The notes under the pieces are model-generated. The model had not been told where the DNA came from and made no database searches. It saw only the letters and a program-made list of their open reading frames with translations. DNA of 64,000 bases from a virus. Position numbers and translations under genes: made by a program. Positions 18,474 through 23,759 of this stretch are shown here, piece after piece. The stretch is from positions 18,266 through 82,265 of the IMG/VR virus record IMGVR_UViG_3300046330_000229, one strand, 5' to 3'. The first letter of the stretch is position 1. Each line of letters opens with the position of its first letter.

Positions 18474-19652
18474 ATGAAAAATAATCCATTAACTGACACA
18501 GTGTCGTCTATGTTATCCGAATTTCCATACTACGCACAACTGCTGTTGTGTATGGATAGACGATTAACAGACCAAGTACCGATTGCTGGAGTATCCTTCA
18601 AACACGGTCGAGTTACTTTACACATTAACCCTAATACGTTTAATACGCTAACACCGTCACAACGTAAAGGGGTTTTATTACACGAATGTTGTCATATTAT
18701 TTATAATCATTTCGGTAGATTTGAATTAAATAACAAAACTAACATTGCTACTGATCGCGTAATTAATGAAATAGTTAATAAGGTGTACTACGATAGTATT
18801 CCCGATGTATTAAATGTAGAAGGTATTGGTGACGTTAGACCGATTACGCCGCTTAATTTTAAAAGCTATTTAAAACCTAATACTCCAGTTCTTGAATTTC
18901 AACCAGCAGAGTATTATTTAAGTCTTCTTAATACAGAAGGTAACGGTAAAGCTGACGAGCCTCAAGAATTTAATTTTGATGATCATTCTGGTATGGATTC
19001 AGAAGGTGACGGAGCGGGATCAGCAAATGAAGTGATTAAACAACAAATTCGTGCTATTTTAAATAAAGCTAAGGAAAAAACTAAAGCTATGGCTGGCAAT
19101 ATTCCTTCAGATGTTCTACTAGCCTTAGATGCTATGAATAATGATACGCTGCCGTGGAATGCTGTACTACGTAAATTTATTGATAAAGCTACAGACGTTG
19201 TTCTTGATGGATCTAGAAAAAAAAGAAATAGACGCACAGGCTTACTAGCTCCAGGAATTATTAAAGAGCCTAAGTTAAAAATTGGTGTAGCTATGGATAC
19301 ATCTGGTAGTGTTAGTGACGATTTTATTTCTGCATTTTTAGGAGAACTAGATAAAATTTACGGTACAGGTATTACTGATATCCGTGTAACTTTTGGTGAT
19401 ACAGTACCGAACGATGTTGTACAATATAAGCCTAGAACTAAAATGAACATGTCTGGACGTGGCGGTACGTTATTTCAACCATTCTTGGATAAGTTAAATG
19501 ACGAAGATGTTGATGTAATTGTTTACTTCACTGATGGCGATAATTATGATACTATTCAAACAAAAATTCCCGTGTTATGGTGTCTATGTCCTAACTATTC
19601 AATACCTAAAGGCGCTAAAGAGCGCGACTGTGTGAAGATGAAACTTGGCTAG
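18474..19652 (+). CDS. metallopeptidase-vWA protein (DUF2201-like)
   Basis: LLHECCH zincin motif; MIDAS DTSGS, GGT, FTDG. Confidence 0.85.
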   Translation: MKNNPLTDTVSSMLSEFPYYAQLLLCMDRRLTDQVPIAGVSFKHGRVTLHINPNTFNTLTPSQRKGVLLHECCHIIYNHFGRFELNNKTNIATDRVINEIVNKVYYDSIPDVLNVEGIGDVRPITPLNFKSYLKPNTPVLEFQPAEYYLSLLNTEGNGKADEPQEFNFDDHSGMDSEGDGAGSANEVIKQQIRAILNKAKEKTKAMAGNIPSDVLLALDAMNNDTLPWNAVLRKFIDKATDVVLDGSRKKRNRRTGLLAPGIIKEPKLKIGVAMDTSGSVSDDFISAFLGELDKIYGTGITDIRVTFGDTVPNDVVQYKPRTKMNMSGRGGTLFQPFLDKLNDEDVDVIVYFTDGDNYDTIQTKIPVLWCLCPNYSIPKGAKERDCVKMKLG

Positions 19653-21233
19653 TGATACATCTTTACATTTTTATGTACAACAGATAGGTGTTACGCCTAT
19701 GTCCGAATTATTAGAGCAAATTAAAAGATACCGACTATGGAGAGAAGGTATGTCAAAGATTACTTCTTTGTATTTTACTGACGGAAGGTTTAAAAATGAA
19801 TAGTACAACAACGGCTATATGTAGTAAAATTGAAGAGATTATCGGTACATTTAAAAGTAAAATCCGAACAGCAGAAGCTTTAATGAAAGTGTTGGAGACG
19901 TTATCTCTTTATGAAGTTGGGATTGATAAAAATTCACACAGACTATATCATTTTAAATATAAACTTATTAATGACGTGAGTAGTAATGAAGTACAATTTA
20001 AGATTGTAGCATTTCCTATTGACGCTTTAATGGGAGAACAAGATAGAGTATTATCAGTTGATGACTTACAAAATAATTACTTACCCTACTCTGTTAGTAC
20101 AAGACAGGTGTTACCGGATAAAAAATGAAAATAGACCTTGGAGTACTGGACACACCTTATATATACATAATTCCTTATATGTTAGGTAAAACTTCTATTA
20201 CTTGGTGTTTTATTTACCAAAACGCTATTATAAAGGCTAACACAGATGTGTGTGTTTCTAGTACAAGATTCTGGCGCTTAACTGAGATACTGTCTAAAAG
20301 ATTTGGAATTGTTATATAATGAGACATTGGACAAGTAGATTCTTGCATAGAGAAAATAGTGCTAGCCACGTTTTTATATTTAAAATTCTATGTTTTTATT
20401 TAGGCAAAGTTCCTTTAAAATATTTGTCTGTGTACATAGAGATGTTGTGTAGAATAAGTTTTTCACAAGAAGTGGAATTTCTTAGGTATAGTAAAATAGA
20501 CCAATACCTAGATAAAAGGCTTGTTAGACAATACGGGAGACATAATGTTTAAGGTGGGTAAGTGGACAAAGTACGCAACACAGCCTGATATCATTACCAC
20601 ACACGTACTAGGTAACTTAACTAAACACATAGGCATTATGCCGATGGTAACTTTAACTAAATATGTAGAATTTATGTACCGTATAAAATTCGATAGGACT
20701 GTTTCAGCAGCTAGATACTACCGTCTTCGCCCTTACTTACTAAGACGAATTACTAGACAATACGGAGTAATTCGGTGAATAATTTGAATAATTATACCTA
20801 CGCTACGTTTTTTAATAGAAACTACCTATGTATAGCTTTGATGAAAAGAATCGGACAAATGCCCATGCGTTTTATACTACTATATACAAAAGCTTTGTAT
20901 CATTCATGGAATAACTATATGTATTTAAAAACTGGTCCAGTTGGTAAGTATGACCGTTTATGTGAATGGTTAATGAAACGATATAACATAAGGTTTAGAT
21001 AAATGGTCAGGTACGAATTTTTTATAGAAAGTGAATTTACTGTACGACACCTTCGGACCGCAGTGGGTGTGATTCCTTGTAGAGTTATAGCCTTTTGGAT
21101 TAATCTTATATGGAACACTTATTGCGATAGCTCAAGACAAATGACATACTTGAGATATAATAAATTGTGCGACCGAGTGATTAAACGTTATCCGCAAATT
21201 TTTGTTGACAAACCTACCTATTCTATGATATAG
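19645..21233 (+). repeat. tandem paralog array A with hydrophobic-G-x-x-P motif
   Basis: ORFs 19645-19803 (IGVTPM), 20125 (LGKTS, divergent), 20319 (LGKVP), 20545 (IGIMP), 20775 (IGQMP), 21003 (VGVIP); ORF 19796-20128 is interspersed. Confidence 0.75.
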
Positions 21234-21258
21234 TGATAGTATACCGCAAGGAGTTATA

Positions 21259-21633
21259 GTGAAAGATTTAGTGATGCCTAGGCTGTTAAAAGTTGTCGAT
21301 ATTTCAGCACCAGATAGACGTAACAGGATATATACAAAAGTGCACATGTTCATGATGGACAGCGACCATTTTTTACGCCTAGCTAACTCGTTTAACTATG
21401 GTGAAATTTCAGCACTGGAGTGCCGAGTGGGTGTGTGCGTTAAACATCCCGACGATGACCATAATCCCAATTATAGCCAAGAGTTGGCCGAGTCTAGGTA
21501 TAAGAAAATCTTATCTCGCATATTACATATCCTTAGTACCCCGAGCGAAGTTGTTATACAAACCGAGCATTACAGAATCGAGTATAGCCGGCTCGATCAC
21601 TCATTATTCGTATCAGCTACCTCGCCATTATGA
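21259..21633 (+). CDS. hypothetical protein
   Basis: 124 aa with AAGGAG SD; RVGVCVKHPDD motif. Confidence 0.6.
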   Translation: MKDLVMPRLLKVVDISAPDRRNRIYTKVHMFMMDSDHFLRLANSFNYGEISALECRVGVCVKHPDDDHNPNYSQELAESRYKKILSRILHILSTPSEVVIQTEHYRIEYSRLDHSLFVSATSPL

Positions 21634-21831
21634 GTGGCCGCCCTCGTTAAAATTTGACGCAATACAGGCCGCTCTAATAATAACTTTTCGTCTACAAAAC
21701 ATAATACTCTAACACATATCTAAGGTTATTAGTTTTAGGGCATTAATAACCAAAAATGACTATTAACTTTTGCCTTACAGGATATATAAATAGTGCTTCA
21801 AATCGAATATAACAGCAACAGAAGAAAAGAC

Positions 21832-21860
21832 TTGACTTTATACTCTGTGTGTGGTATTGT
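21832..21860 (+). promoter_or_regulatory. sigma70 promoter, leaderless, for array B
   Basis: TTGACT-17-TATTGT; ATG at 21867, 6 nt downstream. Confidence 0.7.
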
Positions 21861-21866
21861 TATTAT

Positions 21867-23759
21867 ATGAGCGCGTACAATATACCAAAAGCTGTGTTAG
21901 AACGGGTACTTAGCGGATTAGGGGTGGCCCCTTCTGCAAATATTGCACGCCTTTTATGTGCTTTGGAATGTTACTATACAACCTCTTACGAGTCGGATTC
22001 TGAGTTATTTGATGAAGTGGCTACCCTCAATATTAAAGAAAGACTAAGAAAGTTCTACCCAACAAAGGACTATTCTCAGATTTACTATTACGAAGAAGCT
22101 CGGGTTACAAAACTTAACATAGAAAAGTTATTAGATGAAGCAGCCGTATGATGCTATTGTCAAACAGGCCTTCACTGACTATATAGGAGTGGCTCCTATG
22201 TCTGCTATTTTAGCCTACATAGACGATTATTTAATAGTTACATGGAAACATTTCGGCTGGGTTACTGTTGAAAATCCCACACCAAGCTTATATAAGGCAG
22301 CGTCGGCAGTGTCTAGACATATAGACATACACGGTATAGAACATCGATATGACGCAACCAACGCTAAGTGGATAGCTTATATTAGACAGGAGCAGATATG
22401 ACGTACGAATTGAATCATGAAGCCCGTCGAATAATACTATCTCTTATTGGAGTAGCTCCTATGGAAGTTATTAATTTACATTTATCAAATCTTGAAACTA
22501 GGACACCAGCACGAAGTTATCGATGGGCACTTATACGTGAATATGACCATATTAGGATGTACCCAACTATTGATAATGTTTGTCTTTTAGGTGATGACGG
22601 CAGATGTTATTATTACAATAAATATCAAGAGTATATGACTGTATGGGAAGCTACAATATGACAGTGAGACACCACATATCATCCTTTATCGGTATTGTAC
22701 CCATGGAACTGATAACGAAGTCATTACTTCATTACGGAGGGTGCCATTATGACATCGGGGCCGCGTGGGTGCTACATCCTAAAAATAAGACCGTTAAGCT
22801 CTATAGAGCAGCCAATAGCGATTTACACTTAAGTACTGACGGTGAGATATACATAAGTGATAGATGGGCCTTATTTAGATTAAACAGGATTTCTTTATGA
22901 ATAAAGATATAGGCTATCTAGTTGAAAACATTGGTATAATACCTACAAAGGTTATTACATTAGCTATTAAAAAAGAACTACGGCGTTGTGACACAAATCG
23001 TGGACATTGGTCGGAAACAGCAGAACCGAGTACATATTGGCCCGTTATGTACTCAGAAGAGATATATTACATTGACGAACAAGGTGAGTTCTATTATACA
23101 GCATTTGATGGGTCATGGCAGATATGGAGAGAGTCTCGTGACTAAAGAAGAGTTTGTAGAACTAGTGGGTATTATGCCTTCAAACGAGCTATTACTGTGC
23201 TGGGAGCGTTCTACTGACGAACGGAATGAAAGACTACGCACAGGCAGGTCTACCGGCTACGCGTGGACTGAAATGGACGGACTACCTATGTGTACGTTAT
23301 ATCGAGTTAATCGTAACTGGTTGTACGGATCTGATGGTAATTGCTATATATTAGATGTATCAGAAGAGGTAGGCCTGGAAGTGTGGCATATATGGGAGAA
23401 AGTGTCATGACAATAGCTCAAACTATAATGCAAGGACTGGGAATTATGCCTACAAAGGTTATAGCTAATCTATTAAAAGAATACAAGGGTGTTGGTGACT
23501 ACAAAGTACACACCGTATTATGGAGGCGTGCTGGTAGTAAAAATAACAAACATAAATTCTTATGTAAAGGACATAGTACTAGTTATTACCACGATGTGTA
23601 TACAAATGGTAAGAGATTGTATTTAGACACAACTGGAGGAATGTTCCTTATTCCTAATACGGAGAAACAAGCCTAATGACAATACGAGATGTGATAGCTT
23701 CCAGCATAGGGGTTATACCCGCCCACAATGTTAAAGAGTTATTAGCTTATAATGATTGA
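21867..23759 (+). repeat. tandem paralog array B (8 overlapping ORFs) with hydrophobic-G-[IV]-x-P motif
   Basis: 21867 LGVAP, 22135 IGVAP, 22398 IGVAP, 22658 IGIVP, 22897 IGIIP, 23138 VGIMP, 23407 LGIMP, 23676-23759 IGVIP. Confidence 0.85.

Follow-up and report, generated by a model that had tools for sequence, protein, structure and literature searches.

A 64,000-nucleotide stretch of the IMG/VR virus record IMGVR_UViG_3300046330_000229 (the window; record bases 18266-82265, with all coordinates below counted from the window start) carries on its plus strand, at 19645-23759, an array of 16 co-oriented small genes, 14 of which encode proteins of 27-94 amino acids (aa) that belong to one family marked by a short glycine- and proline-containing motif. 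The array is real, and its products form a single protein family in which a constant N-terminal element is joined to two different C-terminal modules. We favour, with modest confidence, its interpretation as a lineage-specific multigene family in a hyperplastic slot, that is, a variable slot between conserved genes, with the motif serving as a structural turn and the proteins having an accessory role in host takeover or counter-defence. The source is a tailed phage whose record of 82,265 bp is self-closing in assembly through a 24-bp terminal repeat, and the array takes up about 5% of this 82-kb genome.

An array of diverged paralogs

All 14 motif-bearing open reading frames (ORFs) proposed in an earlier sequence-only reading of this DNA are present on the plus strand where that reading had placed them. 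The motif, [ILV]-G-x-x-P, is strict in 13 of the 14 members, the exception being m03 with G-K-T-S (LGKTS). The starts of m05 (20545), m09 (21867), m12 (22658), m14 (23138) and m15 (23407) were reassigned to an ATG or GTG overlapping the stop codon of the gene ahead; 13 of the 15 gene junctions overlap or abut (ATGA, TAATG, GTGA and similar), an arrangement typical of translational coupling. The first member was said to overlap the stop codon of the preceding vWA gene, and its TTG start indeed sits 5 nt upstream of that codon. The members are not consecutive, as had been supposed: two motif-less non-members, x02 and x08, are interleaved with them.

The concentration of the motif in this region is far beyond chance. 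Across the six frames of the 82-kb genome [ILV]G..P occurs 43 times, and the array's 1,292 codons hold 13 of these occurrences against 0.5 expected (Poisson P ~1e-14). A profile built solely from the subfamily B members m10-m15 places m01, m05, m16, m06, m09 and m07 within its best seven non-training hits among 1,442 six-frame ORFs, and leave-one-out profiles rank the omitted member first in nine cases of 14. Both m03 and m04 fail the motif-only test, and their membership is established through full-length comparison. A profile scan of the genome found no further members outside the array.

The glycine codons of the motif (GGT, GGC, GGA and GGG) and its proline codons (CCT, CCC and CCG) vary synonymously across the members, and the codon table bears out the earlier claim that conservation acts on the protein and not on the DNA. 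Nucleotide likeness among the copies is reduced to 19-28 nt at the motif, which indicates that the copies are old and, again, that it is the protein that is conserved. The annotated frame outscores the other five in codon usage for 15 block genes out of 16, the exception being m16 with its 27 codons. This last member had been described as a motif-only peptide, correctly so, as it comprises only the hairpin. It is probably a truncated remnant at the array edge; it looks truncated because 2 nt separate its end from the repeat bracketing block B.

Such a stump raises the possibility that most copies are non-functional leftovers of a recent amplification and of recombination in a slot prone to it. 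The short, TTG-dependent m01 would fit this account along with m16, as would the codon-usage scores of the members, which range from -0.18 to 0.23 against 0.31 for long genes. Every frame is nevertheless open and tightly coupled, and the copies are old yet retain the glycine, the proline and the subfamily signatures through synonymous changes, which indicates purifying selection on the protein. We consider wholesale decay highly improbable.

Two subfamilies with different C-terminal modules

The bodies of the proteins had been called almost unalignable. Inside each subfamily they align well (for A, m04 and m05 match in blastp at E 7e-11), and the proposed division into two subfamilies stands to the extent that A and B each align clearly, while m01, m09 and m16 belong to neither. 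Subfamily A is basic, with isoelectric points (pI) of 9.1-10.7 and a net charge of up to +12, and its C-terminal helix carries R-Y-x-R-L...L-x-K-R; the starts and stops of the block A genes overlap or abut. In subfamily B the motif is followed by W, D-G-x-h-Y and W-x-h-W in a beta-part, half of the members are acidic (pI 4.6-5.9), and the internal junctions of the block are ATGA overlaps in four of five cases and GTGACTAA in the fifth.

The AlphaFold2 (AF2) model of m05 comprises four helices; the motif occupies the turn that joins those at residues 16-28 and 34-46 (helices 2 and 3; pLDDT 63). That of m13 has a helix at residues 3-10, a turn, a helix at 17-30 and then five strands (pLDDT 61). 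For subfamily A, a fold search (VIA-align wide) returns generic helical bundles only, with Z up to 5.9. The same search aligns residues 40-82 of the low-confidence m13 model with single propeller blades at Z 3-3.8, and ESM Atlas structure hits for the B beta-part, again from a low-confidence model, have TM scores of 0.34-0.44. Foldseek against the PDB yields nothing at E <=0.001 for either model; ESM Atlas feature scores do not exceed 0.86 for m11, and m05 has no usable feature hit.

The predicted beta-part of subfamily B thus has a generic likeness to a single propeller blade, through leads that are not mutually independent and do not establish membership. Propellers of the NHL/SBBP kind have several tandem blades per chain, each blade a four-stranded meander. 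The B members give no NHL match in Pfam scans. The B profile does reach giant NHL/SBBP proteins, matching them only at profile positions 62-88 and through many summed repeats. A more remote idea, suggested by the model, is that the six B members, with one blade-like meander each, might form a hetero-oligomeric propeller-like ring.

The motif as a predicted structural turn

The sequence-only reading took the motif to be a docking tag. Several observations speak for a different role. In both AF2 models the G..P lies between two helices, and in m05 this segment shares the top confidence of the model. In nearly every member, hydrophobicity over 19-residue windows also peaks at the motif. The sole match of the 14-member profile to a solved structure is a designed helical-repeat connector, G-K-S-P-T-E-V-L-L-E-L-I, in which the glycine closes one helix and the proline starts the next. 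On account of the predicted turn position, the peak hydrophobicity and the designed-loop match, the simplest reading is that the motif would form the turn of an N-terminal alpha-hairpin belonging to the fold core, where glycine and proline would be the least replaceable residues. More generally, this case advises caution, in that strict conservation of Gly and Pro among diverged mini-proteins can reflect a mere fold-keeping turn and not a docking signal.

Helix, glycine, hydrophobic residue and proline, followed by another helix, could also describe a helix-turn-helix (HTH) element, and the proteins might then bind DNA or RNA, with subfamily A as small basic nucleoid or transcription factors and subfamily B as winged-helix-like, excisionase-like proteins. 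Transposase-type HTH domains show the pattern L-G-V-S-P-S-T-V, and excisionases have two helices and a beta wing. The hydrophobic spacing around the glycine suits the classical HTH pattern, the strong positive charge of subfamily A is in keeping with nucleic-acid binding, and in the predicted B structure beta strands come after a pair of helices. Against this, Pfam scans at E up to 10 assign none of the 14 members to an HTH family, no HTH protein emerges when PDB sequences are searched with profiles, and the fold searches contain no clear HTH or winged-helix match (Z <6, from poor models with pLDDT 61-63). A largely hydrophobic second helix is also unlike a recognition helix, acidic proteins make up half of subfamily B, and in B a single helix precedes the turn. 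Taken together, we regard a nucleic-acid-binding role as rather unlikely, and as most conceivable for the basic subfamily A.

Two further candidates were considered and rejected. A membrane hairpin is unconvincing given a maximal 19-residue hydropathy of 0.5-1.7 and the charged residues in these stretches. The array might also resemble a set of precursors of ribosomally synthesized and post-translationally modified peptides, with a conserved leader and a hypervariable core. Such cores are short and rich in Cys, Ser and Thr, and a modifying enzyme is encoded beside them; the bodies of the members have 40-70 residues with subfamily-conserved predicted secondary structure, and no modifying enzyme lies nearby.

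A slot with different content in related phages

Metagenomic relatives of the vWA peptidase at 37-67% identity include P0024 (67%, encoded on a contig of 13.6 kb), P0025, P0028, P0029 (81-kb contig) and P0038 (83-kb contig), and two loci, L085 (6.4 kb) and L087 (4.9 kb), extend past it into the slot. L085 keeps the AAA ATPase (56% identity), MoxR (55%), vWA (41%), x02 (27%) and x08 (29%); L087 keeps the C-terminus of vWA (44%) and x08 (33%), together with an x02-like gene in the same position that is 19% identical in alignment A8 and gives no BLAST hit at E up to 0.01. In both loci m01 is absent and x02 directly follows vWA.

Past x08 the resemblance ends: the small tandem genes of L085 and L087 do not match the array members at E up to 0.01. 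At 1494-3892 L087 has 12 tandem units of 56-78 aa from a different family, two of them fused in the ORF at 3063-3473; an M-N-I-x-x-I helix at the N-terminus of each unit is followed by a beta part that contains D-G-x-h-Y and, at the C-terminus, by I-S/T-x-R-x-x-I-K-L..L-Y-G. We considered whether these units could be the same repeat cut at another point, a gene-level circular permutation, and dropped the idea, as hhalign of the L087 family against that of the source phage gives P 0.25 or worse. In L085, x08 is followed by six small ORFs, and an adjacent pair among them at the contig end (5821-6108 and 6005-6340) is 56% mutually identical. To judge from these comparisons, the slot between common landmarks is filled with different small genes in each phage, which is the behaviour of a hyperplastic region.

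The right border of the slot is shared as well. Window positions 23760-24120 align with L087 3990-4240, which lies on the right-hand side of the L087 array (84% over 32 nt by blastn), and the two non-coding regions have in common GGTTATTA..TATAG, CTGAGAC.GTCAC and sigma54-like boxes. The box pattern TGGYAY-N5-TTGCW occurs four times in the 64-kb window, all within 23861-24115 with two on each strand, and three times in L087 (4116-4186); this conservation argues that the boxes are functional.

Comparable slots have been described in T4-type phages, in which hyperplastic regions contain ORFans that are flanked and shuffled by PeSL cassettes, each with a strong sigma70-like promoter and a stem-loop terminator and recurring where ORFan modules border one another (Arbiol et al. 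2010, PMC2839356). The likeness to the present case lies in a variable slot of small genes between conserved genes, with content replaced between relatives (PMC2839356), and in putative elements, namely a border stem-loop and promoters of the sigma70-like kind, to which a direct repeat around block B is added here. The differences are equally clear. The T4-type regions hold unrelated ORFans, whereas here one paralog family has expanded, and here one repeat pair was found in place of a cassette ahead of every gene, with the genes chained by stop/start overlaps. No cassettes lie between individual array genes; a single hairpin, promoter-like site and repeat pair are found at block B. The 18-nt repeat, CTRAGGTTATTAGTTWTA, is followed by TAGTGCTT (21720-21751 and 23761-23790), with a 55-nt insertion in the left copy, and it brackets block B, where it could act as a recombination or terminator element similar to a PeSL cassette. 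Block B had also been credited with its own leaderless promoter. A sigma70-like site does precede m09; the ATG of m09 lies 6 nt past the -10 box, a gap that makes a leaderless mRNA plausible but unproven.

How might an array of this kind have arisen? We hypothesize that the family grew through one tandem duplication after another, with rapid divergence of the copies, in a hyperplastic slot limited on the left by AAA-MoxR-vWA-x02-x08 and on the right by the conserved non-coding regulatory region. Its members would share an N-terminal alpha-hairpin of helix, hydrophobic-G-(V/I)-x-P and helix, the glycine ending helix 1 and the proline opening helix 2, to which alternative C-terminal modules would be attached: a basic two-helix extension in A and an antiparallel, single-blade-like beta-meander of about 45 residues in B. 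Transcription would proceed from host-type (sigma70-like) promoters, with translation coupled by the stop/start overlaps, and the members would be small early or middle proteins, the diverged surfaces of the copies possibly binding different host targets. Fast turnover of the slot would leave related phages with different small-protein families.

The neighbouring MoxR/vWA pair

The sequence-only reading also claimed a possible functional tie between the array and the MoxR/vWA pair to its left, which is in fact a trio with an AAA ATPase in first place (window 16357-19652; L085 360-4159). Relatives of the pair are found by tblastn in 245 phage records, including N4-like phages; we take it to be of the N4 gp24/gp25 type. 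The genes at 17398-18465 and 18474-19652 belong to the same widespread pair as those of rV5-like phages and the MoxR of Bas54, and the array lies outside the conserved neighbourhood of that pair. Phage records, viral contigs and metagenomes supplied 163 further loci with a vWA-peptidase gene (1.67 Mb in all). Their ORFs give no match to the A, B or motif profiles at E <0.25, and the densest motif cluster among them has five hits per 4.2 kb against 13 in the source array. Small paralog pairs detectable by BLAST occur with like frequency on either side of vWA (upstream in 9 of 113, downstream in 10 of 121). Judged by these loci, the array is not a general companion of the MoxR/vWA pair. The claimed tie reduces to adjacency, with x02, x08 and two promoter-like sites intervening, and we infer that the position beside the pair reflects clade synteny and not a demonstrated mechanism.

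The idea behind that claim was an adaptor model, in which the hairpin would be a constant handle for binding, remodelling or cleavage by the MoxR/vWA-peptidase and the variable part would target host or defence proteins. As biology this is reasonable, because phage Bas54 depends on its MoxR ATPase to overcome a defence system (PMC13716836) and MoxR-vWA pairs act as chaperone and co-chaperone, with vWA domains binding peptides of partner proteins (PMC7159879). The translational coupling of m01 to the vWA gene and the position of the array behind AAA-MoxR-vWA-x02-x08 in all three clade members (the window, L085 and L087) fit it too. The model is nevertheless decidedly unlikely in our estimation. 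The L085 and L087 arrays lack the motif, and the L087 family is not detectably related, so that no handle is conserved even within the clade; none of the 163 other loci has a member or a comparable motif cluster; and small paralog pairs are no commoner downstream of vWA than upstream. Moreover, x02, x08 and the two promoter-like sites separate the pair from most members, and the predictions make the motif a buried turn between helices. A wider version, in which the array would be a swappable counter-defence arsenal with the hairpin as the handle for an AAA-MoxR-vWA machine and the L085 and L087 arrays as its other clients, seems to us very unlikely.

The MoxR-vWA ternary conflict systems of bacteria (Kaur, Burroughs, Iyer and Aravind 2020, PMC7159879) share with this locus a MoxR-class AAA+ next to a vWA protein. 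They have variable effector components, and one subtype has a beta-propeller fused to the vWA; their conserved third component, which accompanies the pair, is a VMAP, iSTAND, FtsH or vWA-fused propeller, none of which was found here in Pfam scans. Those systems are bacterial, whereas the present locus belongs to a phage, and here every small protein has a gene of its own and at most one blade-like meander.

An orphan family

Relatives of the family were sought at several levels. Two word-seeded profile searches of 5.8 billion proteins recovered only the source phage's own proteins, and when the B profile was run exhaustively with hmmsearch over 1.84 billion representatives, these were joined only by the giant NHL/SBBP propeller repeat proteins, which match a single hairpin. 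No significant Pfam family was found for the members, no PHROG family (T4 internal proteins included) at E up to 0.1 for the ten members searched, no tblastn match in phage records, and, bar the designed connector, nothing significant in profile searches of PDB sequences. Scans of viral contigs with the single proteins vWA, m11 and MoxR gave no close relative, blastn of 16300-24000 against phage records gave no match, and alignment A1 is too variable for a pattern scan. On the strength of these sequence searches, the family is known only from the source phage, as an orphan, lineage-specific group.

The terminase of the source phage is at most 28.6% identical to that of any cultured phage. Genes for terminase, portal and major head proteins occupy the minus strand at 0.8-12.1 kb, and ribonucleotide reductase, primase-helicase and DNA polymerase are encoded on the plus strand. 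This layout bears on another possible analogy, that with the T-even internal proteins IPI, IPII and IPIII, which carry a conserved capsid-targeting sequence and act in counter-defence in T4 (PMC3012670; PMC13716836). Like the array members they have 50-100 residues, a constant N-terminal element and bodies diverged beyond recognition, and the members could by the same logic be packaged in the virion and injected, the N-terminal element being a capsid-targeting sequence and the bodies disarming host defences. The similar size extends to mature IPI*, which has 76 residues with beta sheets flanked by helices (PMC3012670). In T-even phages, though, the proteins enter the prohead and the prohead protease then cleaves off the N-terminal tag, whereas here the element is a predicted internal turn, sequence similarity is lacking and the genes are not in a late or structural module: the array forms a plus-strand block with sigma70-like promoters, in the opposite orientation to the head genes. 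The members have no PHROG similarity to internal proteins, their alignment contains no consistent protease-site pattern past the motif, and in subfamily A the motif lies 20-37 residues in and not at the N-terminal tip. We therefore find virion packaging scarcely credible.

At least part of the array is present in 24 freshwater metagenome runs, and at least half of its sampled words in 13 of them; no RNA runs are listed among the 24. Contigs of four runs (X10, X13, X14 and X17), compared at >=80% likeness, are the same as the window over 19600-23800 except for T>C at 21608. Across these four freshwater runs the phage population looks nearly clonal.

Weight of the interpretation

Several considerations count against the interpretation of the array as a lineage-specific family in a hyperplastic slot with a structural motif. 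All three clade members have their array past the MoxR/vWA block, as a functional link would give, and the same hairpin that may hold the fold together may also double as a binding surface. The AF2 models are of low confidence (pLDDT 61 and 63), and the fold searches return generic matches only. A role in counter-defence is proposed by analogy. Finally, with a single polymorphism across the four runs, no ratio of nonsynonymous to synonymous substitution (dN/dS) can be computed that would tell purifying from diversifying selection.

With these reservations, three related freshwater phages with landmarks at 27-56% protein identity and three different small-gene sets constitute a clean natural experiment. 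Expanded paralog families fill two of the three slots, and a single paralog pair is among the genes of the third. The slot is well suited to studying the birth, duplication and replacement of phage genes, and it offers 14 candidates for anti-defence and toxicity screens. Tandem families of tiny, fast-evolving proteins may hold much of the untested host-takeover and counter-defence repertoire of phages.

Features of the locus

Table 1. Genes and sequence elements of the array and its surroundings, in window coordinates
Feature	Position	Strand	Description
m01	19645-19803	+	52 aa, IGVTP, TTG start; short form; best non-training hit of the B-only profile (E 1.7e-4); best codon score of six frames
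Block A (m03-m07)	20125-21233	+	64-77 aa, motif at residues 20-37
m03	20125-20319	+	block A, LGKTS
m04	20319-20552	+	block A
m05	20545-20778	+	block A
m06	20775-21002	+	block A
m07	21003-21233	+	block A
m09	21867-22151	+	94 aa, LGVAP; third C-terminal type; motif profile E 6.8e-6; sixth best non-training hit of the B-only profile (E 0.095)
Block B (m10-m15)	22135-23676	+	80-90 aa, motif at residues 10-21
m10	22135-22401	+	block B
m11	22398-22661	+	block B
m12	22658-22900	+	block B
m13	22897-23145	+	block B
m14	23138-23410	+	block B; GTG start, ATG at 23108 as alternative
m15	23407-23676	+	block B
m16	23676-23759	+	27 aa, hairpin only, IGVIP; 46% identity to the m12 N-terminus
Classical AAA ATPase	16357-17319	+	PF00004 (E 1.6e-6); phrog_2376; L085 orthologue, 56% identity
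MoxR-type AAA+ ATPase	17398-18465	+	PF07728 AAA_5 (E 4.7e-7); phrog_1297 (E 1.6e-59); L085 orthologue, 55% identity
Putative metallopeptidase (DUF2201_N, HExxH) fused to vWA-like domain (DUF2201)	18474-19652	+	PF13203 (E 2e-15), PF09967 (E 2e-10); phrog_1314
x02	19796-20128	+	110 aa, motif-less non-member; 27% identity to L085 4050-4478 (E 2e-9); alignment A8
x08	21259-21633	+	124 aa, non-member; G-E-I-S..E-x-R-V-G-V..K-H-P-x-D; alignment A7
Sigma70-like promoter	21205-21234	+	TTGACA-18-TATAGT, 11/12; ahead of x08, followed by GGAG and GTG at 21259
Sigma70-like promoter, extended -10	21832-21860	+	TTGACT-17-TGgTATTGT; ahead of m09
18-nt direct repeat, left copy	21720-21737 (element to 21751)	+	hairpin GGTTATTA-12 nt-TAATAACC at 21724-21751
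18-nt direct repeat, right copy	23761-23778	+	89% identity to left copy; starts 2 nt past the m16 stop
Conserved non-coding region, right border of slot	23800-24120	.	sigma54-like boxes; common to L087

The x08 protein is 33% identical to the product of L087 948-1310 (E 1e-15) and 29% identical to that of L085 4481-4864 (E 9e-14), and its family matches nothing in Pfam or PHROG. With the x08 alignment as query, just two unrelated phage contigs were recovered, both without arrays, in which an x08-like segment forms the C-terminal part of a 156-aa protein (L165/L166 7001-7156). Neither Rfam, at gathering thresholds, nor tRNA scanning returned anything for the whole window. The array and the next plus-strand block are separated by a gene-poor 1.2 kb, within which lies a lone ORF of 75 aa on the minus strand (24550-24777), preceded by an 11/12 sigma70-like promoter (24797-24769).

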